From: Dickeya solani IPO 2222
GTDB taxonomy: Bacteria; Pseudomonadota; Gammaproteobacteria; Enterobacterales; Enterobacteriaceae
DNA: 32,000 bases
Direction of reading: 5' to 3'
NCBI RefSeq assembly: GCF_001644705.1
Contig: NZ_CP015137.1
Span: forward strand, 3,930,001-3,962,000
A program made the translations under genes and the position numbers. Within the stretch, counting starts at the first letter, position 1. The number at the start of each line of letters is the position of its first letter. Under the pieces are notes generated by a model, which was not told the origin of the DNA, made no database searches, and was given only the letters and a program-made list of their open reading frames with translations. Below, piece by piece: positions 4,071-31,412 of the stretch.

Positions 4071-4082
4071 GGGGAGAACGTT

Positions 4083-4991: not shown

Positions 4992-5625
4992 CCCGAAAAT
5001 GATTGTGCGCACCAAATTTATTGACCGTGTTTGCCACTGGATTGTGGTGATCAGCTTCTTTATGGTGGCGCTGTCCGGCATCGCGCTGTTTTTCCCGACG
5101 CTGCAATGGCTGACGCAAACCTTCGGTACGCCGCAGATGGGGCGCATCATGCACCCGTTCTTCGGTATCCTGATCGTCATTTGTCTGGTGCCGATGTTTA
5201 TCCGTTTCGTCGGTCACAACATCCCGAAACGGCGCGATCTGCCGTGGTTCCTCAATATTATCGAGGTGCTGAAGGGCAACGAGCATGAAGTGGCTGACGT
5301 GGGTAAATACAACCCCGGTCAGAAAATGATGTTCTGGAGCATCATGGGCCTGACGCTGGTGCTGCTGATTACCGGCATCATCATGTGGCGCCCTTACTTC
5401 GCGCCTCTGTTCCCGATCGATGTGGTGCGTTACGCCATTCTGCTGCACGCTACGGCGGCCATCGTGCTGATCCACGCCATCCTGATTCACATGTACATGG
5501 CGTTCTGGGTACGCGGTTCGATCAAGGGCATGATCGAAGGCAAGGTGTCGGAGAAATGGGCGTTGAAACACCACCCGCGCTGGGCGCGCACGGTGATCGA
5601 CAAGGCCGATAAAGACAAGAAGTAA
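4984..5625 (+). CDS. fdnI: Formate dehydrogenase cytochrome b556 gamma subunit
   Basis: The track ORF 4918..5625 begins at a TTG. The real start is most likely ATG 4984 ([19 protein letters not shown]...), preceded by AAGGAG at 4969-4974 and overlapping the fdnH stop by 8 nt. The product is 213 aa with four hydrophobic helices and conserved His residues. Confidence 0.9.
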
Positions 5626-6083: not shown

Positions 6084-7109
6084 ATGTCACTGAAACAGAT
6101 TGCAAAAACGCTGGGGCTGTCGGTCACTACTGTCAGTCGGGCGCTGAACGGCTACGATGACGTGGCGGCCGAGACACGCCTGCGGGTGGAAGACGAGGCG
6201 CGACGTCTTGGCTATCGCCCTAACACCTTTGCCCGGCGCCTGAAAATGGGCCGTATTGATGCGGTTGGGCTGGTGTTCCCGTTGCAGCCTGCGCCGCTCA
6301 GCAATACCACCTTTATGGAAATGGTGGCGGAGATCAGCCATGAATTGTCGAAGCAGGAGATCGATCTGCTGTTGATCGCCGACGAGGAGCAGGCTGACCA
6401 TCCGGCGTTTTTGCGCATGATTGAAAGCCGCCGGGTGGATGCGCTGATTGTCGCGCATACCCTGCAACAAGATTCTCGCCTGCAATATCTGCAATCGATC
6501 CGCTTTCCGTTTCTGGCGCTCGGGCGCAGCGACCTGCCGACGCCCTATGCCTGGTTCGATTTCGACAATCAGGCCGGTGCCGCGCTCGCCACCCGTAACC
6601 TGATCGCGCTCGGCCACCGTCACATCGCCTTCCTTGGCGAACACCATCCTCAATCATTTATCGCCCAGCGCCGCGCCGGTTATCTGGATGCACTGGCCGC
6701 CGCCGGTATCGCCCGGCGTGATGAGCTGTTGCGTCAGATAGCGCCATCGCGCCGGGAAGGATACCAAACCACCTTGCAGTGGCTGGCACTGCCGCAGCCG
6801 CCCACCGCCATCGTCGTTGACGGCAGTACGCAAGGCGAGGGGGCAGCGCTGGCGTTGCGCGATAGCGGGCGCTTACAGGGCGAGCAGGCGGTATCGCTGA
6901 TCGTCTATGACGGCCTGCCGGCCGACTCGCTGGTGGAGACACCGGTCACCGCCATTACGCAGGCGACTCGCGTGGAGGTGGGGCAGCAGATCGCCGATAT
7001 GGTGTTTCGCCTGCTGGCGGGAGACGCGCCGGCGTCGTTGCAGGCGTTGTGGCAACCGCAACTGCGTGCCGGACAGACCGATAACCCGCCGCCGGCACAG
7101 GCCGGATAG
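6084..7109 (+). CDS. rafR: LacI-family repressor of the raffinose operon
   Basis: 341 aa. The N-terminal HTH is MSLKQIAKTLGLSVTTVSRALNGYDDVAAETRLRVEDEARRLGYRPN. The motifs AWFDFDNQAGA...LIALGHRHIAFLGE are close to E. coli plasmid RafR as I remember it. The gene lies directly upstream of rafA and rafB, with palindromic operators between. Confidence 0.85.
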   Translation: MSLKQIAKTLGLSVTTVSRALNGYDDVAAETRLRVEDEARRLGYRPNTFARRLKMGRIDAVGLVFPLQPAPLSNTTFMEMVAEISHELSKQEIDLLLIADEEQADHPAFLRMIESRRVDALIVAHTLQQDSRLQYLQSIRFPFLALGRSDLPTPYAWFDFDNQAGAALATRNLIALGHRHIAFLGEHHPQSFIAQRRAGYLDALAAAGIARRDELLRQIAPSRREGYQTTLQWLALPQPPTAIVVDGSTQGEGAALALRDSGRLQGEQAVSLIVYDGLPADSLVETPVTAITQATRVEVGQQIADMVFRLLAGDAPASLQALWQPQLRAGQTDNPPPAQAG

Positions 7110-7172
7110 CCGCCGCCACTGGCATGCGCATGCCATCGATCTCATCGTTCGTTTTTTAACCCGATCACAAAA

Positions 7173-7207
7173 CCCAAACGTTTCGGTTCTAATCCGAAAC
7201 GTTTCGG
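7173..7207. promoter_or_regulatory. Two tandem LacI-type operators (putative RafR O1 and O2)
   Basis: O1 (7173-7186) is cccaaac|gtttcgg, 13/14 palindromic. O2 (7194-7207) is ccgaaac|gtttcgg, a perfect 14-bp palindrome that extends to 18/20 over aatccgaaacgtttcggaat. Their centres are 21 bp apart, two helical turns, and lie 40-70 bp upstream of rafA. Confidence 0.65.
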
Positions 7208-7248
7208 AATACAAATAACCTCATCACCCATCATTCAGGAGGATGAGG

Positions 7249-16400: not shown

Positions 16401-16886
16401 TTATGGGAACAGCCGGGACAGATCCGCGTGCATGGCTGCGGCGATCAATCGAAAATCGTGCTCGCTGATGGAGAACAGTCCAAAGCGCAACGCGTAGCCC
16501 CAATTCGTCCGGCCGGCGGTGAAATCAAGCTGGTTCAGCAGCGGCCGGATGGCTGTTTCCACGCTATCCGCCCAGTCGACGTCGCGGCGATGCGGCACGA
16601 AGCCGTCCCCCATGTCGAAACGGTAAGGCTCGCCGCAGTTGATGATGCCGATGGCGGTGAAGCGCTGGTAGCGTTCCTTCCCTTTGAACGTCTGGTTGGG
16701 GGAGTAATAGGCGAACCCGTCGCCGGGCCTGGCGCGTTTCAGGGCGCTGAGCTTGCCGTGGCAGACCTGGATGTAGCCCCCGTCGAGCGCGTACCGGACG
16801 TGTTCGGCGGAAACCACGCCGACCCAGTAGCGGCGCGGCTGGTGCTGGTCATGGGGAGATAGCGTGAATGGTGGATGGGATAACAT
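16401..16886 (-). CDS. EVE-domain (PUA-like fold) protein
   Basis: The start is moved to ATG 16886, with GAAGGA 6 nt upstream. The product is 161 aa. The sequence YWVGVVSAEHVRYALDGGYIQVCHGKLSALKRARPGDGFAYYSP...FVPHRRDVDW...NWGYALRFGLFSISEHDFRLIAAAM matches the widespread ~150-aa family annotated as EVE domain-containing. This assignment is from memory and was not searched. Confidence 0.7.
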   Translation of the reverse strand: MLSHPPFTLSPHDQHQPRRYWVGVVSAEHVRYALDGGYIQVCHGKLSALKRARPGDGFAYYSPNQTFKGKERYQRFTAIGIINCGEPYRFDMGDGFVPHRRDVDWADSVETAIRPLLNQLDFTAGRTNWGYALRFGLFSISEHDFRLIAAAMHADLSRLFP

Positions 16887-17011
16887 GGCGTTTCCTTCTC
16901 GGTTGGGTACCCGAGAAGATACACGCGACCGCTGACAGATCGTGTCAGCAGTGGTGGTCATCCGGTCTTTTGGGCCGCGATTGCGGTTCGCGCCCTCTCT
17001 TGTGCGGCGCG

Positions 17012-18424: not shown

Positions 18425-18922
18425 GCCGTCAATCCACTTTCAGGTGTTATAGCCTTCCCCTGGCGCTATGTCGCTGTCGGCCTTTGCTGCGCTTTGGCAG
18501 CAGCGGGTCACGCGTAGAGCCGGTATGATACATCGTTATAGATAAAAGGTATGAAAAAAGCCTGTTTAGCGTTGTTTCTCTTCTATTATTCTATTTCTGA
18601 CAATCCGTTACGAGCAAGAAGACGACTATGAGGTAGTGTGTCCTTTTGTTATTCCGGTGCAGAATGATACCCGGCTGTCAGGGCAACCGCGTGACAACCG
18701 TGTGACAACGGCGGGGAGAGCGCGCAACAGGCGTCGGGGCCATCAGTGTCAGGGCGGGCCAGGCATGTCGGAACCGCTAAACCCAGTCCGGCGCTGGCCT
18801 GCTCCCGGTCGCATCGGTATGTGTGGCGATGTGATAAAAAAGGACGGTCGGGATAGGGGATGGCAGGGAAGATATGGCGTGGATTATCGCTTCAACGGGC
18901 ATCCGGGTGTATCGCCGATAGG

Positions 18923-18978
18923 CGTCGCACTATGATCGTCGCATTATGACCGTCGCACTATGACCGTCACACTATGAT
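18923..18978. repeat. 4 x 14-bp head-to-tail tandem repeat (consensus CGTCGCACTATGAC)
   Basis: Read directly from the sequence: cgtcgcactatgat / cgtcgcattatgac / cgtcgcactatgac / cgtcacactatgat. The array is non-coding and lies about 500 bp upstream of the diguanylate cyclase start. Confidence 0.85.
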
Positions 18979-19123
18979 TACGGATCGCTGTACTACGCCC
19001 GCCGTACGGTTTGATGGTTTTCAAGCGTGTCACCGTGATACCGGGCATTAACTTTTGCTCACATTAATTGTTCCGGCAATAAACACACCGTAATGATAAT
19101 CATCAGGTCGCCAGCGGTCCGGC

Positions 19124-19168
19124 TGACGACTTGTTTCTGATGACGACTTGTTTCTGATGACTACTTGT
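19124..19168. repeat. 2.6 x 17-bp tandem repeat (TGACGACTTGTTTCTGA)
   Basis: Read directly from the sequence: two perfect copies (19124-19140 and 19141-19157) plus a partial third copy, tgactacttgt. The array lies about 110 bp downstream of the ABC permease stop. Confidence 0.85.
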
Positions 19169-19279
19169 GCAGCCCAGAGGCGCGCCTGTGGCACAACCGT
19201 TGAACCATACCCAACCAGTAAATAGACCATACCACCGCGGCACATATGCAGCAAAAGACGTCCGAAGGCATGACACGTG

Positions 19280-20866
19280 TCAGTGGACGCGCCAGGCGGT
19301 CAGACGCCGTTCCGCCAGCGTGATGAGCCGATAAAACAGCGTGCTGACCAAGGCTATCAGCAGCACGCCGGCGATCACCCGTTCCGACTGGAACAGTTGT
19401 TGGGCGCGGATCATCATGCTGCCAACGCCGTCGCCGGAGGAGATGAAGTATTCCGCGCCGATGGCGCCGACCCAGGCGTGCATCAGCGACAACCGTAGCC
19501 CGGAAAATAGCGCAGGCAGCATCGCAGGCAGCACCAGCCACCGCAGCCGCTGTCGTGCGCTGAGGCGCAACACGCGCGCGGTTTCCAGCAGCGACGGCGG
19601 CAGATGGCGAACGCCCTGATAGCTAGCCAGCAGCGCCGGGAAAAACGCCGCCAGCGCGATGAACACCACTTTGGCGCTCTCTTCCAGCCCGAACCAGGCG
19701 GTGAGCAGCGGCAACCAGGCGAACAGCGCGACGCTGCGCAGGGCGGAGAGCAGCGGCGTCAGCAGACGATCGGCCACACGGCTGCGACCCAGCAGGCCGC
19801 CCAGCAGGCAACCCAGACCGGCTCCCAGCGCGAACCCCGCCAGCGTGCGGGACAGGCTGGCGCTCAGCGCGGAGGTCAGTTCCCCGCTGCCCAATCCGGC
19901 CAGCAGGGCGGTCACCACCTCACGAGGCGCAGGCAGAAACGCGGCATGCACCCATTGCCGATCCGTGGCAAGTTGCCAGAGCAGGCACAATAGCGCGGGC
20001 AGGATCCAGCCCGCCAGCGCGTGCCAGGCGGCGTGCGGCGTCGGGCTTTCGTGACTCAGCACCGGCGCGGGCCAGAAAATCCAGCGCCGTTCCAGCCGTT
20101 GCAGCGCCTGCTCGCCCGCCAGACCGAACGCGCCAATCACCAGAATGCACACCAACACCAGATCCAGCATAAACAGCTGGCGGCTTTGCACCATCAGGTA
20201 ACCCAGCCCTTCGCTGGACGCCAGCAATTCCACCGCGATCAACGACACCCAGCCTTGCGAGAACGCCAGTCGCGTGCCGGTCATCACGTACGGCAGCATG
20301 GCGGGGATCACCAGCCGACGCAGCCGGGTCGGCCAGGGCAGGCGCAGCGTGCGCGCCATCTCGTAGAGTGTCTGCGGCGTCTGGCGGATGCCGGCGCAGG
20401 TACACAGCGTGACCGGCACCGTCACCGCCTTGATCAGCACCACCAGTTTCAGCGCTTCGCCGATACCCAGCGCCAGCATCAACAGCGGGATCCAGGCCAG
20501 CGTCGGGATTTGCGCCAGCACGTTGAACAGCGGCATGCCGAGCCGGTCCAGCGTGCGACTAAGGCCGAACAGCACGCCGAGCGTCAGACCGAGCGCAATA
20601 CCGCCAGCCAGCCCGATCGCCAGCCGGGCAAGGCTAACCAGCAACTGGGGCGCCAGCTCCTGGGGAATGAAGTCGCGGGCGCTGTCCGCCACCGTGGCGG
20701 GGGAAGGCAGAATTTGTTCCGACATCCAGTCGTAATGGCTGGTTAACCACCAGCCGCACACCAGCAGCAGCGGCATCAGCAGTGCGCTGCACGCCGCCGA
20801 TAGCGGGGCGAACGACCACGGGCGCGGCGGGTTCAGCGTCAGTTTGGGCATCATCGACATCATCAT
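19280..20866 (-). CDS. Fused tandem ABC-transporter permease (two SsuC/TauC/NrtB-type transmembrane domains in one chain)
   Basis: 528 aa with an obvious internal duplication. Half 1 contains ...LYEMARTLRLPWPTRLRRLVIPAMLPYVMTGTRLAFSQGWVSLIAVELL.... Half 2 contains ...LLETARVLRLSARQRLRWLVLPAMLPALFSGLRLSLMHAWVGAIGAEYF.... These are two EAA-loop regions. The start lies 12 bp after the exbD stop. Confidence 0.85.
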   Translation of the reverse strand: MMMSMMPKLTLNPPRPWSFAPLSAACSALLMPLLLVCGWWLTSHYDWMSEQILPSPATVADSARDFIPQELAPQLLVSLARLAIGLAGGIALGLTLGVLFGLSRTLDRLGMPLFNVLAQIPTLAWIPLLMLALGIGEALKLVVLIKAVTVPVTLCTCAGIRQTPQTLYEMARTLRLPWPTRLRRLVIPAMLPYVMTGTRLAFSQGWVSLIAVELLASSEGLGYLMVQSRQLFMLDLVLVCILVIGAFGLAGEQALQRLERRWIFWPAPVLSHESPTPHAAWHALAGWILPALLCLLWQLATDRQWVHAAFLPAPREVVTALLAGLGSGELTSALSASLSRTLAGFALGAGLGCLLGGLLGRSRVADRLLTPLLSALRSVALFAWLPLLTAWFGLEESAKVVFIALAAFFPALLASYQGVRHLPPSLLETARVLRLSARQRLRWLVLPAMLPALFSGLRLSLMHAWVGAIGAEYFISSGDGVGSMMIRAQQLFQSERVIAGVLLIALVSTLFYRLITLAERRLTAWRVH

Positions 20867-20878
20867 GGCGCGCCCGGG

Positions 20879-21280
20879 TCACTTACGGGTTAGCAGCGAC
20901 AAACGGGTGATGCCCGCTTGTTCCAGATCGACCAGCAGCGCGGCCACCGCGCCATAATTAGCGGCGTCTTCCGCCTGCACCTGCACCACCAGCTCCGGAT
21001 TGGCCGCTTTAGCCTGTTGCAGGCGCGCCGTTAGCGCCTCGCGGGGCAGGGCTTCTTTGTCGATAAACAACTGCTGCGACGCATCAAGGCTGATCACCAG
21101 CGGACGCGGCGAATCGGCCGGCGCCACCGCCGCCGTTTTGGGCAGGCGAATCGGGATACTGTTGGTCAGCATCGGCGCGGTGACGATAAACACCACCAGC
21201 AGCACCAGCATCACGTCCACCAGCGGGGTGATGTTCATTTCGCTCATCACCTCGTCATTGTCGCGGGAAGCAAACGCCAT
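20879..21280 (-). CDS. exbD: ExbD/TolR-family Ton-system protein
   Basis: 133 aa. The sequence MSEMNITPLVDVMLVLLVVFIVTAP is the canonical ExbD N-terminal TM segment, including the conserved Asp. The start lies 2 bp after the exbB stop. Confidence 0.9.
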   Translation of the reverse strand: MAFASRDNDEVMSEMNITPLVDVMLVLLVVFIVTAPMLTNSIPIRLPKTAAVAPADSPRPLVISLDASQQLFIDKEALPREALTARLQQAKAANPELVVQVQAEDAANYGAVAALLVDLEQAGITRLSLLTRK

Positions 21281-21282
21281 GA

Positions 21283-21981
21283 TTACACCACCTCCCGGAT
21301 CGTCTGCACCGCATACGGCGCGGCCGGTTGCTCGGTGGCAAGGTGGAACTCCTGCGCCTGCGCCACGCTATAAATGTCATGGGCAAAGTCGTCCATGTCG
21401 GCCACTTCCAGCTTCAGTTGGCGCAGAAAATAGTTGTAAATCAGCACCGCGGGCACGGCCACCGCGATGCCGATGCCGGTGGCGATCAACGCATTGCCGA
21501 TAGGACCGGCGACGGTGTCCAGGCTGGCGGAGCCCGATTGGCCGATCGTCTGCAACGCCGCCATGATGCCCCACACGGTGCCAAACAGGCCGATGAACGG
21601 CGACGTGGTGCCGATGCTGGCCAGCAACGCCAGGCCGTTTTCCAGCGAGCGGCGCTCGCGCTGGATTTGCTGCTGCAACGCCCGTTCTACCCGGTCTTGC
21701 AGATGCGCGGTCGGCGTGATGCGGTCTTTCACCCGTTCCAGCGTCAGCTGTGTGGCGCGCGCCAGGTTCGCCAGCGCGCCGGGATGGGCGACATCGCGCA
21801 GCGCCGCGTCGATGTTTTCCTGCTGCCAGAACAGTTGGCGGAACTGCTGATTACGCCGCCGCTGGCGGGCGTACTGCGCCAGCTTGAGCAGCCCGATGGA
21901 CCAGGTGACGAGCGAGAAAAACAGCAACAACAGGATTACGCCCCCTTCCGGGGACAGCAGAGTGATATGTTCGAGCGTCAT
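21283..21981 (-). CDS. exbB: MotA/TolQ/ExbB proton-channel protein
   Basis: 232 aa with three TM helices. The family signature is LASIGTTSPFIGLFGTVWGIM...GPIGNALIATGIGIAVAVPAVLIYNYF. Confidence 0.9.
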   Translation of the reverse strand: MTLEHITLLSPEGGVILLLLFFSLVTWSIGLLKLAQYARQRRRNQQFRQLFWQQENIDAALRDVAHPGALANLARATQLTLERVKDRITPTAHLQDRVERALQQQIQRERRSLENGLALLASIGTTSPFIGLFGTVWGIMAALQTIGQSGSASLDTVAGPIGNALIATGIGIAVAVPAVLIYNYFLRQLKLEVADMDDFAHDIYSVAQAQEFHLATEQPAAPYAVQTIREVV

Positions 21982-21994
21982 AATAGGGATGCCT

Positions 21995-22843
21995 CTATGA
22001 GTTCAGGGTGAAATCGACAGGAACCACGACCCAGCCGCTTTCCGGCTGGTCGCCCCGGCGGGCCGGTACGAACGACCAGTGCTGTACCGCCTCGCGGGCG
22101 GCGTCGTCCAACGTTGGGTATCCGCTGGAGCGTTGCAGACGAATGGTTTGCACTTTGCCGTCAGGCCGCACCTGGACATTGAGCAACACCGTGCCTTCCC
22201 AGCCGCGGTTAATCGCCACATCCGGGTAAGCGGGTGGTGGGTTGCGCAGATAGGCGGCGCTGGCGGAAGGCGGCGTCACCGGTGCGGCTGCCGTCGGCGG
22301 TGCGGCGGGGGCGGTCGCAGCGGTATTGACCGGCGTAGTCTGAGGCGCTACCGGCTGGCGCGGCGTCGCCGGTTTTTTCGCTATCGGTTTGACCGGTTTG
22401 GGCATCTTCACCTGCGCGGTTTCATGGACGCGCGTTGGTTGCGGCGGCGTCAGCGCCTGCTCATCCACCGGCGGTTCGACAGCAGGCGGCGGTTCCGGCG
22501 GCATGGTTTGGGACGGTATTGCTTCGGATGGTATTGCTTCGGACGGTATTACTTCAGCCGGCGTAGCCTCAGCCGGTGCGGCGGCGAATTCGATGATTAC
22601 CGGCAACGGGCGCGGCGGCACCAGCGTCGGCGACGACGGACGCAGCGCCAGCGGCGCCAGTACTGCGGCGTGCAGCACCAGCGCCAGCGTGAGGGTGAGC
22701 CAGGTTTCCGACCGTCGCCCGGACAAGGCGGCCGGCCAGACCGGCGCAATAGCGCGTGCGGCAGCCGGTCGGGTAGACGCGCCGCTGCCCGATGTGTCCG
22801 GCCAGTTGACGCTGGCAGCCCCGGCGTACAGGGGATGAGTCAT
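21995..22843 (-). CDS. tonB: TonB-family energy transducer
   Basis: The track ORF begins at a TTG (22861). ATG 22843 (MTHPLYAG...) lies 10 nt after GAGGAG and is preferred. There is a single TM helix with a His (LTLALVLHAAVLAPL). A long Pro/Ala-rich spacer follows. The C-terminal TonB domain is AAYLRNPPPAYPDVAINRGWEGTVLLNVQVRPDGKV...GYPTLDDAAREAV. Confidence 0.85.
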   Translation of the reverse strand: MTHPLYAGAASVNWPDTSGSGASTRPAAARAIAPVWPAALSGRRSETWLTLTLALVLHAAVLAPLALRPSSPTLVPPRPLPVIIEFAAAPAEATPAEVIPSEAIPSEAIPSQTMPPEPPPAVEPPVDEQALTPPQPTRVHETAQVKMPKPVKPIAKKPATPRQPVAPQTTPVNTAATAPAAPPTAAAPVTPPSASAAYLRNPPPAYPDVAINRGWEGTVLLNVQVRPDGKVQTIRLQRSSGYPTLDDAAREAVQHWSFVPARRGDQPESGWVVVPVDFTLNS

Positions 22844-23220
22844 GATGGCGTTACTCCTCAAGAAAGCTGGCGCAGCGAATATCCGCGTGGCTGAGCATCG
22901 GTTGGATCGGGTTTTAGCGAAAATACCGGACCATAAAATAGATAACGATTGACCAGGAAAGATAAATAACGGTTTTGTCGATTCTTAATCATTTGCTTTT
23001 GATGTCAAATGCCATATCTCGCTATCAATATGCTGTCTTTTATCAATTGAATCGGCTGAAATTTCTGTGGCGTCAGCCGTTATTTATTATATTCCCCCCG
23101 GTCAGATGGCATTTACCCTAATCGTCGGCGGGAAAAAAAGGCTAATGCATCATCGGTATAGTTTTTTTGCGTTTGCTGCATGAGGCGGGCAACGCCGATA
23201 TTTCCTGTTTTAGTTAATTC

Positions 23221-23245
23221 ATAAAAATACAAATGCCATTTTTAT
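23221..23245. promoter_or_regulatory. Interrupted dyad ATAAAAAT-N9-ATTTTTAT enclosing the AAATGCCAT motif (candidate LysR-type regulator site)
   Basis: Read directly from the sequence: an 8-bp perfect inverted repeat with a 9-bp spacer, about 100 bp upstream of the binding-protein ATG. The shape fits the T-N11-A style of LysR boxes. The assignment of the binder is inference. Confidence 0.35.
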
Positions 23246-23346
23246 ATTAGCCAGTTTATTCCCCACCCTTTAAATGTTGCCGGAGCAAACACAACGATAG
23301 GTCCGCACAATCCGATCCGATGATGACTTTTCACGCTGGGGGAAAT

Positions 23347-24360
23347 ATGAAGCAAATGGGAAAACACTGGCTACTGTCCGGCCTGCTGGCCTTAACGGCG
23401 TTGTGGCACGTGGGAGCACAGGCGACCAGCGCTACCGAGATTCGTATTGCGGTGTCGGATATCGGCGCCGGTTCTCAACCGAGCGGCGGCGGGCTGGTTG
23501 ATCTGATTTTCAGTCAGAAACGGCTGGAACGGGAGTTCGCCCGCGACGGCATTAGCGTTCGCTGGCTGTTTATCAAAGGCGCCGGACCGGTGATTAACGA
23601 AGGCTTCGCCAACCATCAGATCGATATGGCGTATCTGGGCGATTTGGCCAGCATCATCGGCCGTTCGCGTGGGTTGGACTCGGTGGTGATTGGCGCGGCG
23701 GCGCGCGGGGTTAATCATTATCTGGCGGTGTCCCGCGGTTCGCCGATCCACCGGCTGGAGGATTTGAAAGGCAAGCGGGTGGGGCTGTTTCGCGGCACCG
23801 CGGCGGAACTGTCGTTCGTCACCGCGCTGCGCTCCCGCGGGCTGAGCGAGTCCGACATGAAAATCATTAATCTGGACTTCGCGGCCGCCAGCGCCGCGTT
23901 GGCCGCCGGTCAGATTGACGCCACCTGGGGCGGCAGCAACGCGCTGGCGCTGCGCGATAAAGGGCTGGCGGATATCGCGGTATCAACCCGTGATTTGCAG
24001 GGGGCGGGCCAGTTAACCGGGCTGATCCTGGTCGACGGCAATTTCGCCCGCCAGAATCAGGATGTGTTGGCGCGTATTATCAAGATGCAGAAAGAGGCCT
24101 CCACGTGGGCCAGCCAACCTGCCAATCGGGATAATTATATTCAGCTGCTGGCGACGCAATCCGGTTATCCGGAAAAATTTCTGCGCGAAGATTTGGACGG
24201 TATGCCGCCGTTATCCCAATTATTATCGCCGGAGTTGGACCCCGCGTTTGTCGCTATTCTCAAACAGTCCGTTGCGCTGGCGTATGAGGCGAAATTAATC
24301 CGTAAATCCTTTTCGGTGGAGGAATGGCTTGATAGCCAATTTTTAAAACATCAGCGCTGA
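23347..24360 (+). CDS. Periplasmic ABC substrate-binding protein, SsuA/TauA/NMT1 (sulfonate/sulfate-ester/nitrate) family
   Basis: The start is moved to ATG 23347, giving the signal peptide MKQMGKHWLLSGLLALTALWHVGAQA. The product is 337 aa. It has a two-lobe type-II SBP pattern (EIRIAV..., DMAYLGD..., LKGKRVGLFRGTAAE...). It is divergent from the operon that contains the matching permease family. Confidence 0.8.
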   Translation: MKQMGKHWLLSGLLALTALWHVGAQATSATEIRIAVSDIGAGSQPSGGGLVDLIFSQKRLEREFARDGISVRWLFIKGAGPVINEGFANHQIDMAYLGDLASIIGRSRGLDSVVIGAAARGVNHYLAVSRGSPIHRLEDLKGKRVGLFRGTAAELSFVTALRSRGLSESDMKIINLDFAAASAALAAGQIDATWGGSNALALRDKGLADIAVSTRDLQGAGQLTGLILVDGNFARQNQDVLARIIKMQKEASTWASQPANRDNYIQLLATQSGYPEKFLREDLDGMPPLSQLLSPELDPAFVAILKQSVALAYEAKLIRKSFSVEEWLDSQFLKHQR

Positions 24361-24450
24361 TTTGTCTTTTATTCATTATTTATTCTCTCCGCCTTATTTA
24401 TTGTCGCGTGGGCGCGGCAAGGGCGGCTTTATTTAAAAACTGGGGTGGAT

Positions 24451-26757
24451 ATGGGTAATAAAAAAACGATTTTCTGGCGATACCCGGTAGTGATTGGCAG
24501 CGTGCTGGCGATGCAAGGGCTGGCGCAGGCGGCCGATACGCCGACGACAGCGGCCAACGCCGCGGCGACGCCGGATGCCGCGACACGTGCTGAGGCCACG
24601 GCAGCCCCCGCGCAGGCGGTACGGCTCAAGCGGGTACAGGTTAACGCGCAGCGTCGGCAAGCGCAGCAGCAAACCAGCCTGGCGTCGGTGGTGGACGGTA
24701 AGGAACTGGAGCAGGATCGACTCTACCGCTTTGAAGACCTGTCGCAGGCGGTCACCGGTGTGGATATCGCTGCAACGGATGCGCTGGATACCCGGGTGAC
24801 CATTCGCGGCATCGGCGACGGCGGCGGCAGCGAAATCAACATCGGCATGCCAAGCAGCGTCGGGTTGTTTCTGGACGGTGTCTACCTGTCTCGCCCCGGC
24901 ATGTTGTCCAACGACCTGCTGGATATCGATGCGGTCAGCGTGCTGAAGGGGCCGCAGGGTACGCTGTACGGCTTTAACACCACCGGCGGGGCGGTGGATA
25001 TCCGCAGCCGCAGGCCGACGTTCAAACCGGAAGTGTCGCTGGAGCAGTCGTTCGGCCAGCGCGGCTACGTTCAGTCCAAACTGATGGCGTCCGGCGCGCT
25101 CAGCGACAACTGGGCCGGGCGCATCAACCTGTCGCACACCGAAAAGGGCGGCTACGTCTACAACGTACAAAACGGCCACCAACTGGGCGGCAGCAACAGT
25201 AACGGCGTGCGCGGTCAGTTGCTGTACCAGCCGGATGATGGCTTTAGTCTGCGTATCATCGGCGATTACAGCGAAGCGACCAGCTACCCGGTGATGTCGC
25301 TGGTGGACAGCTACCCGGTCGGCGGCGTGGATCAGTTCCGGACCCGCGCGGCGGCGGTCGGGGCGCGAGTGGTGGACGGCCGTCAGGTGGCGCTGGACGA
25401 CGAAACCAAAAACCGCGTCGCGCAGGGTGGCGGCTCGGTGGAAGCCAACTGGCGGCTGCGCAACGGCTATACCCTCAATTCGTTGTCATCGCTGCGTTAT
25501 TTCCGCTTTCTGCCAGGTAGCGCCGATGGACTGAGCATTCCGCTGTATCAGGACAGCGGCGCGGACGCCCGCGACCGCACCTGGGGGCAGCGCTTCTGGG
25601 TGGATTCGCCCAAAGGCGGCCTGGCGGATTATTCGTTCGGGGTGGATTATTGGGGCGAGAATCTGGATACCTTCGCGCATGACCATTACTACAACAACGC
25701 GCGCGTCACCCGCTGGTATGGCAACACCAGCAACACCGGCAAATTCGTACAACGCTTCGGTTCGCTGGAAGATACGGTGTATTCGGCTTTTGCCCGCAGC
25801 ACCTGGCATCTGGGCGACCGGTTCGACCTGACCACCGGCGTGCGGGAAACCTACGAGAAGAAAACCGGCACCTTCCGCCGCATCAACAAAAACGATTTCG
25901 ACTCCGGCGATCTGTCGCAGAGTTATCACCTGCCGTCTGCCACCGTCAGCCTTAACTGGTACGCCACGCCCAATGTGACGCCGTACCTGACGCTGGCCTA
26001 CGGCGAAAAGGCCGGCGGCCTCAACATCTCTTCCGGGGCGGCGAAGCAGGCGGGCGTCGATAGCCTGTATATCAAGCCGGAGAAAACCCGCGCCGTGGAG
26101 CTGGGGGTGAAAACCCACTGGCTGCAACGCCGGGTGGAGTGGAACACTGCGCTGTTCTGGAATGAAGTCAGCGAGTTTCAGACCACCGCCTACGACGAAG
26201 AAACGCTGAGTAGCTATCTGGTGAACGCCGGTAAATTCCGCTCGCGCGGCGTGGAATCGCAACTGGCGCTACGTCCGGTCGATGGGCTGACGGTGAGCCT
26301 TAATGGCACCTTGCTGGACGCCAGCTATCTGGATTTCAAGAACGCCAGGTGCCCGCCGGAAGTGACGCTGGCGGCTAACCCGCCCGCCTCCTGCGATCTC
26401 AGCGGCGAGCGGGTATTCAGTTCGCCGAAGCTGACCTACAACGCCCGCATCCGCTATGAGTGGCAAGCCTTCAATAACCTCCAGGCGTTTGTGGCCGGTC
26501 GCTGGGCCTGGCGCAGTTGGGCCTACGGCACGGTGGATAACTCCGACTTTACCCGCATTCCGGCCTACGGCGTGCTCAACCTGTCCACCGGGGTGAGCGG
26601 CAAACAGGACGGGCATGCCTGGCGCGCCACCCTGTGGCTGAATAACGCGCTGGATAAGACTTACTACCGCACCGTCAAGTCGGGCGATTACGGGTCGGCG
26701 TATGGCGTGCTGGGCGAACCGCGCACGCTGGGGATCACGCTGGGTTATGACTTCTAA
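24451..26757 (+). CDS. TonB-dependent outer-membrane receptor
   Basis: The track ORF begins at GTG 24445; ATG 24451 is preferred. The signal peptide ends at ...LAQA. A low-complexity Ala/Thr/Pro linker follows. The TonB-box/plug start is VRLKRVQVNAQRRQ, and the plug motif is VLKGPQGTLYGFNTTGGAVDI. The protein ends in LGITLGYDF, with a terminal aromatic residue. The product is 768 aa. There is no N-terminal signalling (STN) extension. Confidence 0.9.
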   Translation: MGNKKTIFWRYPVVIGSVLAMQGLAQAADTPTTAANAAATPDAATRAEATAAPAQAVRLKRVQVNAQRRQAQQQTSLASVVDGKELEQDRLYRFEDLSQAVTGVDIAATDALDTRVTIRGIGDGGGSEINIGMPSSVGLFLDGVYLSRPGMLSNDLLDIDAVSVLKGPQGTLYGFNTTGGAVDIRSRRPTFKPEVSLEQSFGQRGYVQSKLMASGALSDNWAGRINLSHTEKGGYVYNVQNGHQLGGSNSNGVRGQLLYQPDDGFSLRIIGDYSEATSYPVMSLVDSYPVGGVDQFRTRAAAVGARVVDGRQVALDDETKNRVAQGGGSVEANWRLRNGYTLNSLSSLRYFRFLPGSADGLSIPLYQDSGADARDRTWGQRFWVDSPKGGLADYSFGVDYWGENLDTFAHDHYYNNARVTRWYGNTSNTGKFVQRFGSLEDTVYSAFARSTWHLGDRFDLTTGVRETYEKKTGTFRRINKNDFDSGDLSQSYHLPSATVSLNWYATPNVTPYLTLAYGEKAGGLNISSGAAKQAGVDSLYIKPEKTRAVELGVKTHWLQRRVEWNTALFWNEVSEFQTTAYDEETLSSYLVNAGKFRSRGVESQLALRPVDGLTVSLNGTLLDASYLDFKNARCPPEVTLAANPPASCDLSGERVFSSPKLTYNARIRYEWQAFNNLQAFVAGRWAWRSWAYGTVDNSDFTRIPAYGVLNLSTGVSGKQDGHAWRATLWLNNALDKTYYRTVKSGDYGSAYGVLGEPRTLGITLGYDF

Positions 26758-26767
26758 GGATACGCCG

Positions 26768-29536
26768 ATGCCACTGCATGATACCTCGCGCCGTCGTTTC
26801 ATCCGTAACGGCGCCTTGCTGGCGCTGTCGGCGCCGCTGTGGAACCGGGCGCTGGCGGCGCGCACGCCGGGTGGTGACGAGCCTGCCGACGCTGCGCCGA
26901 CGGTCCGGCTGAACTGGCTGGAACGGCAACCGCCCGCCAGCTTCGGCGGCGTGACCTGGGGCGTGCCCTGGCCGCAGGGGCAGGTGCCCGCCGACAGCGG
27001 GTTCGTGCTGGGCGAAGACGGCCAGGCGGATCGCGCGTTGCAGAACTGGCCGCTGGCCTACTGGCCGGACGGCTCGCTGAAGTGGTCGGCCCATGCACTC
27101 GGCGCTGAGCGCACGCCCGGTCACGGGCTGTCGCTGCGCCCCGTGCCGGCGACTGCCGCAACGGGGGACGCCATCGTCACCGAAACGGCGCAACACTGGG
27201 TGGTGGATACCGGCCGGCTGCGCTGTCAGGTGCCGAAAAACGGCGAGCGTTTGATCGGTGAACTGTGGCAGGACGGTCGGCTGGCGCTCGGCAACGGTCG
27301 GCTGGTGTTGCAGATCCAGTCCGGTGAAGGGACGGACTGGCCACTGACGGTGGAGACGTTGCAGGGGCAGGCCACGCAGGTCACGCTGGAGCAGAACGGG
27401 CCGCAGCGCGCGGTCATCGCACTGCGTGGGGTGCATCGCCATGCCGCGTCGGGTGGCGTCACTCGTCTGCCGTTTGTGGTGCGGCTCTATTTCTACGCCG
27501 GCTCGGCGTCGCTGCGCCTGCTGCACACCATTATCTACGACGGCGACGAGCAGCAAACCTTCATCAAAGGGCTGGGAGTGGCGTTTGATGCGCCGCAGCA
27601 GGGCGAGCTGCACGACCGCCATGTGCGGTTCACCTCGGCGCAGGGCGGCCTGTTTCGGGAAGCGGTACGCGGCCTGACCGGCCTGCGACGCGATCCGGGC
27701 GAGGCGGTTGTCGCCGCGCAACTGGCCGGAAAGGCTACGCCGCCGGTCGCGCAGTTTCCCCCGGCGGTGGGCAAGCGGCTGGACTACATTCCGGCGTTCG
27801 GCAGTTACCGGCTGACCCAGCATCACCCCGACGGCTACCAGATCCACAAACGCACCGCCGCCGGGCAGGGCTGGCTGCTGTCCGCCACCGGGCAGCGTGC
27901 CTCCGGCACCGGCTATCTGGGGTCACCCACCGGCGGGGTGGCGTTCGGCATCCGCCATTTCTGGCAGAGCTATCCGGCCTGTCTGGAGATTCAGCGGGCG
28001 CATACCGATTTAGCCACGATCACGCTGTGGCTGTGGTCGCCGTACGCGGAACCGATGGATCTGCGCTTCTACCACGACGGCATGGGGCAGGCGAGTTTCG
28101 AACAGCAGCGCGAGGCGCTGGAGATCACCTACGAGGATTACGAACCGGGCTTCGCCACCCCGGAGGGCGTCGCCCGCACCAGCGAACTGTTTCTTGATGT
28201 GCTGCCCGCCACGCCGGACAGCGACACGCTGCTGGCGATGGCTCGGCGCCATCAGCAACCGCCGTTGCTGGTGGCCGACGGCGCCGATTTGCAGCGCGCC
28301 GGCGCGTTTGGTCCGGTATGGTCGCCGGCTACGCCGGGGCATCAGCCGCAACCGGCGCTGGATGCGCAACTGGCGTGGTATTTCGACTTCTATCAGCAGG
28401 AGGTGGAACAGCGGAAATGGTACGGCTTCTGGGATTTCGGCGACGTGATGCACACCTACGATGGCGATCGCCATGTCTGGCGTTATGACGTGGGCGGCTA
28501 CGCCTGGGATAACTCGGAGCTGAGCACCGATTTGTGGCTATGGTACTACTTTCTGCGTAGCGGCCGGGCGGACGTGTTCCGCATGGCGGAAGCCATGACT
28601 CGCCACACCGGCGAGGTGGATGTGCACCATGCCGGCCGCTTCCAGCCGCTTGGGTCGCGCCACAACGTGCGTCACTGGGGCGACAGCGCCAAGCAGTTGC
28701 GCATTTCCACCGTGGCGAACCGGCGTTTTCTGTATTACCTGACCGCGGATGAACGTATCGGCGAGCTGATGGATGAGCAGGTGGAGGCGCTGCGCACCCT
28801 GCAGCGGGTGATGCCGGGCCGCAAGATCGGCCAGCCACCGCCGGCCGACGAGCGGCTGGTCAGCCTCTATTTCGGCACCGACTGGGGCGCGGTGGCGGCA
28901 GCCTGGCTGACCGCCTGGGAACGGCGGCATGATACGGCGATACGCGACCGTCTGCTCAACAGTATGCGGTCGATTGCGGCCCAGCCGCACGGCTTCTTCA
29001 CCGGGCTGGCGGAGATGGACCCCGACACCGGCACGTTCCAGCCGGCAGCGGTCGACCAACTCGTTATTTCGCATCTGAGTGCGGTGTTCGGGCTGGCGGA
29101 GGTGTGCGCCGAACTGTTGCAGGTACTGCCGGACCCGGCGTTCGAGCGCGCCTGGCTGGACTATTGCCGCCTGTACAACGACCCGAAGGCGTTGAGCGCG
29201 TTTGTCGGTCAGCCGGTGAAAAAGCGCAATCTGGTGCAGGGCCATGCCCGGCTGAGCGCCTTTGCCGGCTGGCGTCAGCACGACAAGGCGCTGACCCGGC
29301 GCGCCTGGCGCGAGTTTGTGGACGGCGAGGGCGGTATTGTCCACCCCAACCGGCGGGTACGACTGATAACGCCGCCCGCGGTGCTTTATCCGGTGAAAGA
29401 AGCGGAGATCGACTCGTCGATCGATCAACGTTCCGGCAGCACCGTCGTCACTAATCTGTCCACCAATGCGGTGGCGCAGTGGGGGCTGACCACCATCGCC
29501 ATGCTGGCGCTGGCGGGAGACGCACCGCCCAAATAG
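26768..29536 (+). CDS. Large Tat-exported protein of uncharacterised family (candidate periplasmic polysaccharide/conjugate-processing enzyme)
   Basis: The start is moved to ATG 26768, with AAGGA 7 nt upstream and 10 bp after the receptor stop. The twin-arginine leader is MPLHDTSRRRFIRNGALLALSAPLWNRALA. The product is 922 aa. A conspicuous aromatic/acidic block is present: WYGFWDFGDVMHTYDGDRHVWRYDVGGYAWDNSELSTDLWLWYYF...HTGEVDVHH...RHNVRHWGDS. I recognise no cofactor-binding Cys or His cluster that would otherwise explain the Tat routing. Confidence 0.85.
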   Translation: MPLHDTSRRRFIRNGALLALSAPLWNRALAARTPGGDEPADAAPTVRLNWLERQPPASFGGVTWGVPWPQGQVPADSGFVLGEDGQADRALQNWPLAYWPDGSLKWSAHALGAERTPGHGLSLRPVPATAATGDAIVTETAQHWVVDTGRLRCQVPKNGERLIGELWQDGRLALGNGRLVLQIQSGEGTDWPLTVETLQGQATQVTLEQNGPQRAVIALRGVHRHAASGGVTRLPFVVRLYFYAGSASLRLLHTIIYDGDEQQTFIKGLGVAFDAPQQGELHDRHVRFTSAQGGLFREAVRGLTGLRRDPGEAVVAAQLAGKATPPVAQFPPAVGKRLDYIPAFGSYRLTQHHPDGYQIHKRTAAGQGWLLSATGQRASGTGYLGSPTGGVAFGIRHFWQSYPACLEIQRAHTDLATITLWLWSPYAEPMDLRFYHDGMGQASFEQQREALEITYEDYEPGFATPEGVARTSELFLDVLPATPDSDTLLAMARRHQQPPLLVADGADLQRAGAFGPVWSPATPGHQPQPALDAQLAWYFDFYQQEVEQRKWYGFWDFGDVMHTYDGDRHVWRYDVGGYAWDNSELSTDLWLWYYFLRSGRADVFRMAEAMTRHTGEVDVHHAGRFQPLGSRHNVRHWGDSAKQLRISTVANRRFLYYLTADERIGELMDEQVEALRTLQRVMPGRKIGQPPPADERLVSLYFGTDWGAVAAAWLTAWERRHDTAIRDRLLNSMRSIAAQPHGFFTGLAEMDPDTGTFQPAAVDQLVISHLSAVFGLAEVCAELLQVLPDPAFERAWLDYCRLYNDPKALSAFVGQPVKKRNLVQGHARLSAFAGWRQHDKALTRRAWREFVDGEGGIVHPNRRVRLITPPAVLYPVKEAEIDSSIDQRSGSTVVTNLSTNAVAQWGLTTIAMLALAGDAPPK

Positions 29537-29627: not shown

Positions 29628-29691
29628 ACATCATCACGACAGAACATCATCACAACAGAACATCACCACAACAGAACATCATCAGGACATG
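29628..29691 (+). repeat. 4 x 16-bp CA-rich tandem repeat ending 4 nt before a start codon
   Basis: Read directly from the sequence: acatcatcacgacaga / acatcatcacaacaga / acatcaccacaacaga / acatcatcaggacatg. The ATG of the next gene is at 29696. Confidence 0.85.
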
Positions 29692-29695
29692 ATCA

Positions 29696-30484
29696 ATGAC
29701 GGACACAGGCTATAGCGCACAGCGCACGGTTATGGAAAGCCACGCCGGTCAGGCGTGTACCGCCGCCACGGAAGGCGGCTTTCAACGGCAATCAGACGTC
29801 CACCAGGAATCAAACACCCACCAGGAGTCAAATGCCCACCGGGAATCAAATGCCCACCGGGAATCAAATGCCCATCAGTTCGCCCTGCAATGGGCGCAAT
29901 CCGCTGACGGAAAACCGTTGTGCTGGCGGGTGGAGCAGGAGGACCCGGCGCGCACCCGTATCGATATTGACGACCATACGCTGACGCTGGATACCGCTGC
30001 CGGGCTGACGGTGTGGCTCGACCAGCCGCTATCCGGCAGGTATCGCATCAGTTATCTGCGTGAAGTCTTGGTGCAGGGGCAGCCGAACGATCGGCTTTCC
30101 GATCTCAATCAATTTTGGGCGGCGCGGGACCCGGCCCGCGCGTCGCTGTTCACCCGCCACGGGGTGCTGGGCGAATACGATAATCTGGCGCTGTATTACG
30201 TTGGCATGGGCGGCAACTGGAACAGCACCACCCGTTTTCGCTACTACAACGGCCACGGCGAGCGGCAACTGCTGGGGGAGTTCACCGATGAAGCGCATCT
30301 GCTGCGCGCCGGGCAGCGTTATCGGGTGGCCATTGAGGTGGACAGCACCGAAACCCGTTTCCTGATCGATAACCAACTCTACTTTCGCGCCCACTATACC
30401 GAACCGCCGGCCAGCGGCTATTTCGGCTTGCGGACGGTATTTTCACGGCAGGCGATCAGCCAGTTCAGCGTCACACCGCTGTAG
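29696..30484 (+). CDS. YesU/DUF1961-like protein (concanavalin-type lectin/glucanase fold family) with a repetitive His/Glu/Ser/Asn N-terminal extension
   Basis: 262 aa. The C-terminal ~200 aa (LTVWLDQPLSGRYRISY...NQFWAARDP...LALYYVGMGGNWNSTTRFRYYNG...YRVAIEV...YFGLRT) resemble the B. subtilis YesU family as I remember it. There is no signal peptide. No internal Met exists between residue 13 and the domain, so the repeat region must be translated. Confidence 0.7.
   Translation: MTDTGYSAQRTVMESHAGQACTAATEGGFQRQSDVHQESNTHQESNAHRESNAHRESNAHQFALQWAQSADGKPLCWRVEQEDPARTRIDIDDHTLTLDTAAGLTVWLDQPLSGRYRISYLREVLVQGQPNDRLSDLNQFWAARDPARASLFTRHGVLGEYDNLALYYVGMGGNWNSTTRFRYYNGHGERQLLGEFTDEAHLLRAGQRYRVAIEVDSTETRFLIDNQLYFRAHYTEPPASGYFGLRTVFSRQAISQFSVTPL
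29801..29872 (+). repeat. 4 x 18-bp in-frame tandem repeat encoding (H-Q/R-E-S-N-T/A)x4
   Basis: Read directly from the sequence: caccaggaatcaaacacc / caccaggagtcaaatgcc / caccgggaatcaaatgcc / caccgggaatcaaatgcc. The last two copies are identical. Confidence 0.9.
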
Positions 30485-31412
30485 CGTCGGCGGCGCTGGC
30501 GCGATGCGGCGCCTGATCCACCTGCAAAAACATGGCGATCAGCCGCTGTGACAGCCACGACAGGCGGGAGTCGGCGCGGCTGACGATACCGTAATGGGTG
30601 TAAAACTCGTCGGTGTCGTCATCCAGCCCGGTGATTTTCAGCATGTGGATGCCATCCGGCGGCTGTTGTAACGGCCCGTGGCGATGATTGGTGGTACCGA
30701 TGGCGTCGGACTGGCGGATCACGTCCAGCAGGCTGTAGCCGTTTTCGCACTCAATGCTGGTGCGGATATCCTGCTGACCGCTCAGCCGCACCAGCGCCTG
30801 GCGCAGGTTGGGCGGGCGCACGGTGGCCGCCAGCGGATAGCTGAACAATTGCTCGACGCTGATTTCGTCAAACGTAGCCAGCGGATGCCCCTGACGACAG
30901 CAGAAGCCCCAGCGGTGCTGGCTCAGCGGCTGCACGTTGTAGCGGGCGTCCAGCTCGAAATGGCGGGTATCGGCGACGATAAAGGCAAGCTCTTCCGCCA
31001 TCAGTCGTTGGCCCAGCGCCTGCCAGTTATCGACCCGGAACACCAGCCGCACCCGCGGATACTGGCGGGAGAATTCGCCGATCACCTGCGGCATCAGCCA
31101 GGCCGCCGGCGCCGGGCCGCAGCCGAAATGTACCTCGCCGCTCTCTTTTTCGCTGAACTGCTCGATATCGTTGATTAAATCTTGCGCGTGGCGGGTGAGG
31201 CGGCGGGCGTGTTCCAGTACCAGCAGCCCTTTCTTGGTGGGTTCCAGATTATGGTGACGGTCGATCAGCCGCGCGCCCACGCTCTGTTCCAGCGACTGGA
31301 TGCTGCGGCTGAACGCCGACTGTGAAATGTTCATGGCCTGCGCCGCCGAAGTGAAATTTCGGTGCTCGATCAGCGCAATAAAGTGGCGTAACTGACGCAG
31401 GTCGATGTTCAT
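30471..31412 (-). CDS. LysR-family transcriptional regulator
   Basis: 313 aa. The N-terminal wHTH is MNIDLRQLRHFIALIEHRNFTSAAQAMNISQSAFSRSIQSLEQSVGARLIDR. A typical LysR substrate-binding domain follows. The 3' end overlaps the convergent YesU-like gene by 14 bp. Confidence 0.9.
   Translation of the reverse strand: MNIDLRQLRHFIALIEHRNFTSAAQAMNISQSAFSRSIQSLEQSVGARLIDRHHNLEPTKKGLLVLEHARRLTRHAQDLINDIEQFSEKESGEVHFGCGPAPAAWLMPQVIGEFSRQYPRVRLVFRVDNWQALGQRLMAEELAFIVADTRHFELDARYNVQPLSQHRWGFCCRQGHPLATFDEISVEQLFSYPLAATVRPPNLRQALVRLSGQQDIRTSIECENGYSLLDVIRQSDAIGTTNHRHGPLQQPPDGIHMLKITGLDDDTDEFYTHYGIVSRADSRLSWLSQRLIAMFLQVDQAPHRASAADATAV

Follow-up and report, generated by a model that had tools for sequence, protein, structure and literature searches.

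We analyzed a stretch of 32,000 nucleotides (nt) from the genome of Dickeya solani IPO 2222 (here named the window; assembly GCF_001644705.1, contig NZ_CP015137.1, positions 3,930,001 to 3,962,000 of the forward strand), centering on a gene that begins just after the gene of a TonB-dependent outer-membrane receptor and that encodes a protein of 922 amino acids (aa). A previous reading of this DNA from its letters, made without database searches and here called the sequence-only reading, had described the product as a protein of unrecognised function exported by the twin-arginine translocation (Tat) pathway, and had named the PL26 exo-rhamnogalacturonan lyases as a possible lead. The gene and its parts, in window coordinates, are the following.

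26768-29536, plus strand: rhiF-like gene, encoding a 922-aa protein assigned to the PL26 (PcRGLX-type) exo-rhamnogalacturonan lyase family (Pfam, alignment to PDB 5xq3, Dickeya tables)
26768-26857, plus strand: predicted Tat signal peptide, residues 1-30 (SRRRFIR, hydrophobic region, ALA followed by A; translation, conservation among homologues)
26900-27139, plus strand: N-terminal RIFT-barrel domain, residues 45-124 (PF19501)
27176-28243, plus strand: central beta-sandwich domain, residues 137-492 (PF21345), with Tyr455 (codon 28130-28132) in EITYEDYEPGF
28259-29524, plus strand: C-terminal (alpha/alpha) toroid domain, residues 498-919 (PF21346), with the conserved block described below

The open reading frame (ORF) at 26768-29536 translates on the plus strand into 922 aa without an internal stop. 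Three PcRGLX domains of Pfam jointly span residues 45-919, namely PF19501 (E 4.9e-27, 94 bits), PF21345 (E 4.3e-142, 473.8 bits) and PF21346 (E 1.3e-171, 571.9 bits), all far above cut-offs of about 22-24 bits, and the protein thus displays the three-domain architecture of PL26. PcRGLX of Penicillium chrysogenum 31B is the founder of this family (Kunishige et al. 2018, as cited in PMC7596534, ref. 33), and its structures (PDB 5xq3, 5xqg, 5xqj, 5xqo) are those of the only solved PL26 member. Using phmmer against PDB, residues 46-898 aligned with residues 8-895 of the 5xq3 chain (E 3.3e-220), a similarity that covers the full length of the founder, while the BLASTP identity was 42.3% over 906 columns, lower than the HMMER display suggests. 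On the basis of these domain and structure-database matches, the protein almost certainly belongs to the PL26 (PcRGLX-type) family. The PL26 lead was therefore well founded, and the unrecognised function disappeared with it, given the confident match to a defined family, the names carried by homologues and the rhiF literature. Close homologues are alternately named "Tat pathway signal sequence domain protein" and "exo-rhamnogalacturonan lyase family protein" in NCBI and UniRef. An NCBIfam scan of the 922-aa protein matched no family; because Pfam, PDB and the NCBI names all identify the protein, we attribute this blank to a gap in the library and not to novelty.

The nearest homologues are found in Dickeya fangzhongdai (94% identity), other Dickeya (74%), Brenneria and Pectobacterium (about 70%) and Pseudomonas (61-65%), and the 94% and 74% identical Dickeya proteins are encoded in the same locus. 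In published Dickeya tables this gene is rhiF, a rhamnogalacturonate lyase of PL26 placed in the 'pectinasome' beside RhiE; rhiF/PL26 is listed there for six species (D. dadantii, D. solani, D. dianthicola, D. fangzhongdai, D. chrysanthemi and D. lacustris), all of which also carry rhiE, the gene of a PL4 endolyase. Within Pectobacteriaceae, PL26 is limited to the soft-rot genera according to a 2026 preprint. The gene studied here is the rhiF orthologue of Dickeya, and as an annotation (gene name, CAZy/Pfam family) it is not new. Our literature search found no assay of RhiF or of any bacterial PL26 enzyme and no study of RhiF export or regulation, all mentions being gene inventories. To our knowledge, none of the bacterial PL26 enzymes has been assayed.

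The putative active-site tyrosine was located through a single-residue difference between PDB entries, since the variant 5xqo departs from the wild-type PcRGLX chains only by a Y to F change in ALEITYED. The residue aligned with this change is Tyr455, one of 204 positions invariant between 16 diverse bacterial homologues and PcRGLX, and the existence of the variant entry leads us to infer that Tyr455 is catalytic. We also considered RhiF as a pseudoenzyme and ruled this out, the catalytic-type residues being all retained. The aromatic and acidic block that had looked conserved to the sequence-only reading, WYGFWDFGDVMHTYDGDRHVWRYDVGGYAWDNSE (residues 551-584, nt 28418-28519; WYGFWDFG...AWDNSE), is indeed the most conserved stretch of the family, with a majority of its positions invariant. 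Like PcRGLX, RhiF combines a RIFT barrel, a beta-sandwich and an (alpha/alpha) toroid, with 42% identity along the full length, the 204 invariant residues and the WYGFWD...AWDNSE block. Unlike the fungal enzyme, which is secreted through the endoplasmic reticulum, RhiF is bacterial and predicted to be periplasmic, with a Tat leader, and its gene sits behind that of a TonB-dependent receptor and ahead of a gene for a lectin-like DUF6250 protein. The fungal and bacterial enzymes share 42% identity over about 900 residues, a rough tree was rooted on the fungal sequence, and an inter-kingdom transfer of PL26 is plausible.

The stop codon of the receptor ORF (TAA, 26755-26757) is separated by 10 nt from the ATG of rhiF at 26768, exactly as the sequence-only reading had it. 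A candidate Shine-Dalgarno sequence, AAGGA, lies at 26756-26760, 7 nt 5' of this ATG, and the nearest homologue (P0001, 94% identical) begins with MPLHDTSRRRF, hence at the same Met. The leader of RhiF consists of the motif S7-R-R-R-F-I-R13, a moderately hydrophobic region (GALLALSAPLW) and the site A28-L-A30 followed by A31, that is, the S/T-R-R-x-F-L-K-like motif, hydrophobic region and A-x-A site of a Tat substrate. Of the 120 best homologues, 111 have a pair of arginines followed by one residue and two hydrophobic ones in their first 45 residues, and the other 9 appear to be truncated at the N terminus or mis-started; neither R8 nor R9 varies in the 16-sequence alignment, which includes Proteobacteria and Bacteroidota. 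Judging from its motif and its conservation across the family, the leader is a textbook Tat signal and no chance feature, so that the canonical twin-arginine leader noted earlier is confirmed. A second in-frame ATG is present 66 nt upstream, at 26702, and could suggest that the start is mis-assigned and that the protein is not exported by Tat. We regard this as very improbable: the upstream ATG lies inside the receptor gene without a comparable Shine-Dalgarno sequence, a start there would still leave the RR motif about 30 residues from the N terminus, AAGGA precedes the downstream ATG by 7 nt, and homologues begin at the same Met. The alignment does not support any in-frame start past the leader either, conservation resuming only at about residue 45. 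The caveat raised earlier, that another start codon might remove the RR motif, is thereby answered for 26702.

The rhiF gene is embedded in a locus whose other features are the following.

19280-22861, minus strand: divergent operon tonB-exbB-exbD-fused double SsuC/TauC-type permease (Pfam, NCBIfam)
21995-22861, minus strand: TonB (Pfam/NCBIfam)
21283-21981, minus strand: ExbB (Pfam/NCBIfam)
20879-21280, minus strand: ExbD (Pfam/NCBIfam)
19280-20866, minus strand: fused double SsuC/TauC-type ATP-binding cassette (ABC) permease, with no ATPase gene after it (Pfam/NCBIfam)
22862-23319, no strand: AT-rich control region separating the divergent tonB and binding-protein genes (alignment)
23320-24360, plus strand: SsuA-like (NMT1/THI5 fold) periplasmic binding protein with a Sec signal (Pfam NMT1, Phosphonate-bd; PDB 3uif)
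24445-26757, plus strand: TonB-dependent outer-membrane receptor, 770 aa, Sec signal peptide (plug and beta-barrel domains)
29696-30484, plus strand: DUF6250 protein, YesU/CBM66-like lectin-fold beta-sandwich (PF19763, E 1.6e-61 to 2.7e-61; AlphaFold 2 (AF2) model; Foldseek)
30471-31412, minus strand: LysR-family regulator, convergent with the DUF6250 gene (HTH_1 and LysR_substrate)

The sequence-only reading had seen here a sulfonate-type ABC module, an assignment that agrees with our searches, the closest solved relative of the binding protein being SsuA (3uif, E 7.4e-36) and the permease being SsuC/TauC-like. The binding protein reached 134.6 bits against the SsuA_fam model of NCBIfam, under its cut-off of 163.5, and the permease was also under the NCBIfam SsuC cut-off. 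The full arrangement recurs in a second Dickeya and in Pectobacterium, in which the permease gene is followed by one for an SsuB-like ATPase. A core made of the binding protein, the receptor, PL26, DUF6250 and LysR was also found in Pseudomonas (P. cichorii, P. capsici, P. flavescens), Stutzerimonas shows the same core without an adjacent LysR, and Duganella and Pseudoduganella carry the receptor together with a PL26 protein fused to DUF6250. The gap between the receptor and PL26 genes is 4-100 nt in all seven annotated beta- and gammaproteobacterial loci (Dickeya, Pectobacterium, Pseudomonas, Stutzerimonas, Pseudoduganella), the LysR copy keeps the same position with 63-76% identity in the Pectobacterium and Pseudomonas loci, and the TonB-ExbBD operon often accompanies the core. 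The pairing of a glycan-active enzyme with a sulfonate-type module, earlier called unusual, is therefore real and conserved in Dickeya, Pectobacterium and Pseudomonas. A siderophore-linked function of the receptor was considered and rejected, since the receptor scores well under the siderophore-receptor cut-offs and is linked to the lyase across three orders.

In the annotation of D. dadantii 3937, the neighbours are named sftP (receptor), atsR (binding protein) and atsB, and the two genes that directly precede sftP in the numbering, ABF-0019116 and ABF-0019115, are "hypothetical" (PMC4079955); these two are presumably the PL26 and DUF6250 genes. In Pectobacterium, the SsuB-type ATPase gene lies at 1779-2558 of locus L001, and its counterpart in the window is an interval of 855 bp (18425-19279) whose longest ORF has 99 aa. 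This interval contains short tandem repeats, for example at about 18925-18975 and 19120-19165; the second Dickeya is locus L081.

The DUF6250 protein encoded after rhiF was analyzed by structure prediction. The AF2 model had a predicted local distance difference test score (pLDDT) of 95.7 and showed a galectin/concanavalin-like beta-sandwich, and the Foldseek search returned CBM66 (4b1m, E 3e-9) and YesU (1oq1, E 1e-8, template modelling score (TM) 0.70, 17-18% identity). YesU of B. subtilis (1oq1, DUF1961) has a galectin fold, is encoded in a utilisation region for rhamnogalacturonan I (RG-I) and was reported to bind fucosylated glycans (PMC6120924); in this species yesU adjoins a rhamnogalacturonan (RG) acetylesterase gene. 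YesU is the best whole-domain structural match to DUF6250 and both are encoded among RG-I genes; they differ in that their identity is 17-18% and DUF6250 is a separate Pfam family. The DUF6250 protein did not match Pfam DUF1961, the YesU family, even at E 10, and phmmer against PDB gave chance-level hits only, with 1oq1 non-significant. Thus, of the YesU-type neighbour proposed earlier, the fold was supported (1oq1 at TM 0.70 on a model of pLDDT 95.7) and the sequence family was not, the protein belonging to DUF6250 instead of DUF1961. Two tandem repeats were observed in this part of the locus: an 18-bp repeat of 4.4 copies at 29800-29878, which encodes HQESNA/HRESNA in the non-conserved N-terminal tail of DUF6250, and a 16-bp repeat of 3.6 copies at 29628-29684, in the rhiF-DUF6250 spacer. 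Dickeya species differ in copy number and in the length of the tail, and the DUF6250 homologues have 232-250 aa.

The export of DUF6250 differs between lineages. The DUF6250 reading frame of Dickeya, Brenneria, Pectobacterium and Pseudomonas cannot accommodate a signal peptide, and upstream, up to the preceding in-frame stop (39-74 codons; 299 in P. flavescens), a hydrophobic segment is absent. In Bacteroidota, in which DUF6250 is found near PL26 in 9 of 17 loci, and in Verrucomicrobiota, DUF6250 proteins have Sec or lipoprotein signals, and in Oxalobacteraceae a linker of about 8 residues joins DUF6250 to the C terminus of PL26. A twin-arginine-like leader (MRAERCAGRRSFLRGFGLLAGALPLL) is present in one relative, which is encoded directly after a PL22-type (Pectate_lyase22) gene (locus L088, 2126-4175), so that DUF6250 is a partner of more than one lyase family. 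Within the beta/gamma-proteobacterial clade the order PL26 then DUF6250, with short gaps, is fixed.

To place rhiF in its family, we searched with two signatures drawn from the block at residues 551-584, WYGFW[DN][FY]G and GG[YF]AWDNS, and collected 80 loci from species-representative genomes, in which ORFs were called and neighbours were classed by clustering and Pfam; 76 loci carried an intact homologue. The family is large, with more than 4000 matching database proteins and at least 597 stretches of species-representative genomes. The RG-I set consisted of PL11, GH88/105, GH2, GH42, GH43, GDSL esterase and DUF2264, counted up to 4 ORFs away from the homologue. One or more enzymes of this set were present at this distance in 37 of the 76 loci, distributed as 10/14 in Actinobacteria, 11/16 in the Verrucomicrobiota group (including one Phycisphaerae metagenome-assembled genome), 11/22 in other Proteobacteria and 5/17 in Bacteroidota. 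Because 37/76 loci carry such neighbours, we conclude that the PL26 family as a whole is embedded in RG-I degradation. In a neighbour-joining tree the beta- and gammaproteobacterial loci group in a single clade, whose sister is a clade of Bacteroidota likewise linked to DUF6250.

Considering homology and gene order together, RhiF is probably a Tat-exported periplasmic PL26 exo-lyase acting on rhamnogalacturonan fragments imported by the receptor, with a lectin-like accessory protein. RhiF, folded in its three domains, would reach the periplasm through Tat, as its family-conserved motif predicts, the leader being cut after Ala30. RG-I oligosaccharides released by secreted enzymes, for example the PL4 endolyase RhiE, would enter through the co-transcribed TonB-dependent receptor, energised by the TonB-ExbB-ExbD system of the same locus, both steps being suggested by the conserved gene order. 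In the periplasm, RhiF would remove unsaturated galacturonosyl-rhamnose from the chain end by beta-elimination, via Tyr455, as homology to PcRGLX predicts. DUF6250 would be its lectin-like carbohydrate-binding partner, which either leaves the cytoplasm together with RhiF through Tat or is retained there. More speculatively, the products may be imported by the SsuA-type binding protein and the permease of the locus, or by RhiT, encoded elsewhere in the genome, and the convergent LysR regulator may well control the locus. Xanthomonas CUT loci and Bacteroidota polysaccharide utilisation loci (PULs) are TonB-dependent carbohydrate utilisation loci. As in these systems, the receptor gene is tightly linked to that of a periplasmic glycan-cleaving enzyme; unlike them, the rhiF locus has no SusD-like protein, and its inner-membrane step is of the SsuA-type ABC class and not a major facilitator or CUT1 transporter.

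Several observations weigh against this function. In the clade that holds rhiF, a carbohydrate-active enzyme of the RG-I set is found within 4 ORFs in 0/11 loci, and the neighbours instead appear to resemble a sulfate-ester (ats-sft) uptake cluster. At 42% identity to the sole characterised member, another substrate that contains uronate is conceivable. The usual regulator of pectin genes in Dickeya is KdgR, and no KdgR box was found in the control region: a search of the window with TGAAAYNNNRTTTCA, at most 2 mismatches being allowed, gave two weak matches elsewhere, at chance level, and none in 22862-23319. For transport, the Pseudomonas loci lack the permease, and the ABC ATPase is absent, with no remnant, from the window (tblastn with the Pectobacterium ATPase) and from the second Dickeya. 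The ABC import step is thus doubtful, because the ATPase is missing in Dickeya and the permease in the Pseudomonas loci, and the importer of this locus may be crippled or may borrow an ATPase. Lastly, the AF2 model of a natural PL26-DUF6250 fusion had a pLDDT of 76.6 and a predicted TM score (pTM) of 0.78, the DUF6250 part being at about 60-80, and provides no evidence for a fixed lyase-lectin complex.

The resemblance to the sulfate-ester cluster led us to weigh a change of substrate. The Pseudomonas cluster atsACBR-sftR-atsK-sftP (Kahnert et al. 2002, as cited in PMC7711191; PMC3596284) appears to share with the rhiF locus a TonB-dependent receptor, an SsuA-family binding protein, an SsuC-type permease, a LysR regulator and, in Pectobacterium, the ATPase, a likeness in which orthology to the Pseudomonas proteins comes solely from the curators' names (sftP, atsR, atsB). 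In contrast to that cluster, the locus has neither the arylsulfatase AtsA nor the alkylsulfatase AtsK, it carries the PL26 lyase and DUF6250 in the enzyme slots, and in Dickeya it lacks the ATPase. One may imagine that the beta/gamma-proteobacterial subfamily has shifted to sulfur scavenging of the ats-sft type, the sulfatases being replaced by a PL26 lyase and a lectin: a sulfated or anionic uronate oligosaccharide would enter via the SftP-like receptor and be trimmed in the periplasm, and the SsuA-like protein would pass the sulfated product to the permease. Both the shift and this route seem unlikely to us. The architecture, the names given by the D. dadantii curators and the empty RG-I count of the eleven clade loci speak for it, as do sulfur-type neighbours: the Pseudomonas core adjoins an NtaA/DmoA-type flavin monooxygenase, that of P. 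flavescens lies near two TauD-family dioxygenases and a second NMT1 binding protein, and Dyadobacter copies adjoin a SulP sulfate permease and an adenosine phosphosulfate (APS) kinase. The Bacteroidota adjacency is, however, a single Dyadobacter event. Similarly, the Met and Cys content is only 0.9-1.6% in TonB, ExbB, the receptor and the lyase compared with 3-5% in most other proteins of the window, but such low values are common to all of the PL26 family and to exported proteins in general. No sulfatase or TauD-family domain was found by Pfam among the scanned long ORFs of the window (ORFs 4918-5625 and 16401-16961 left out), and with the binding protein and permease under the NCBIfam SsuA and SsuC cut-offs, a specificity for sulfonates or sulfate esters is not established. 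Moreover, all the invariant residues of catalytic type are shared with the RG-specific fungal enzyme, and the gene is limited to soft-rot genera and co-occurs with rhiE. The sulfur-type genes named above lie beside PL26-type loci of unrelated lineages (L082, 5102-6409; L085, 537-4707; L083, 7802-9346).

The proposed rhamnogalacturonan-lyase function of RhiF is compatible with two fates of DUF6250. The hydrogenase small and large subunits and Streptomyces MelC1/MelC2 are pairs in which a protein without a signal is exported by hitchhiking on a Tat substrate. Here as well a signal-bearing protein is followed by a signal-less partner, the RhiF-DUF6250 case being predicted from the genes alone, and we know of no hitchhiking example to report for polysaccharide lyases. 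Because DUF6250 is extracytoplasmic everywhere else and is here encoded directly behind a Tat-signal protein, hitchhiking is attractive, and our analysis suggests that DUF6250 may be co-exported with RhiF in this way. Hitchhiking cannot have been the original reason for the use of Tat, as lineages whose DUF6250 carries a signal of its own have kept the leader as well. The other fate is that DUF6250 of the rhiF clade is simply cytoplasmic and acts on or binds the imported product, with no hitchhiking, Tat serving the folding needs of the large three-domain lyase. This explanation is a serious one, to which we give a little less than an even chance. It agrees with the impossibility of a signal peptide in Dickeya, Pectobacterium and Pseudomonas, with the fusion model, in which the two parts are not confidently docked, and with the Bacteroidota lyase, whose Tat leader stands beside a Sec-signalled DUF6250 and hence did not evolve for co-export. 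It has to face the fact that every other lineage places DUF6250 outside the cytoplasm, by a Sec signal, a lipoprotein signal, its own RR leader or a fusion with a linker of about 8 residues; in addition, a lectin fold has no obvious cytoplasmic role, and the order of PL26 and DUF6250, with short gaps, is fixed in the clade. A cytoplasmic role and co-export are about equally likely.

The most far-reaching combination, that RhiF is the Tat carrier of a complex with DUF6250 folded in the cytoplasm and that it works with an ats-sft-derived uptake route (SftP-like receptor, TonB-ExbBD, SsuA-family protein), is put forward tentatively, as we find it rather doubtful. If true, no Tat hitchhiker pair would have preceded it among polysaccharide lyases, and an SsuA-family binding protein would for the first time be dedicated to a fragment of a glycan, acidic or sulfated. 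Since its export is solved in four ways across lineages, DUF6250 lends itself to a clean natural test of Tat hitchhiking. Among soft-rot bacteria and plant-associated pseudomonads, PL26 is hard-wired to a receptor and a sulfonate-type binding protein and not to pectin genes; either the uptake of pectin fragments uses an unexpected transporter class, or the clade feeds on a substrate other than RG-I. The identification of the gene is routine, and only the conserved ats-sft-like transport context and the signal-less partner remain unexplained.

The control region between the tonB and binding-protein genes was aligned with loci L081, L001 and L002. Conserved blocks shared by Dickeya and Pectobacterium lie at about 23140-23290, for example GCTAATGCAT...ATAGTTTTTTT...CTGCAT and TATTAG.CAG...TTAAATGT; from this conservation they are likely promoter or operator elements, possibly for the LysR regulator. 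No terminator-like site was detected between the receptor, rhiF and DUF6250 genes by a promoter and terminator scan, in which overall counts were at chance level, and an Rfam scan of the window gave no match.

Other genes were observed elsewhere in the window. A raffinose-type cluster at 6084-10712 consists of genes for a regulator of the LacI family, an alpha-galactosidase of family GH36 and a permease of the LacY family (649 bits to LacY_symp); as the permease ORF in the list shares about 80 nt with the end of the GH36 gene, its true start is probably further downstream. On the minus strand, at 10833-11810, lies a gene for a papain-family (C1) cysteine peptidase homologue (E 3.6e-9), uncommon in enterobacteria, which adjoins a trio of flavin adenine dinucleotide (FAD) oxidase, GNAT and 2-hydroxyacid dehydrogenase genes. 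A formate dehydrogenase-N-like operon at 969-5625 encodes a molybdopterin subunit and a 4Fe-4S subunit with a Form-deh_trans anchor, and its catalytic-subunit ORF is uninterrupted over 1033 aa.

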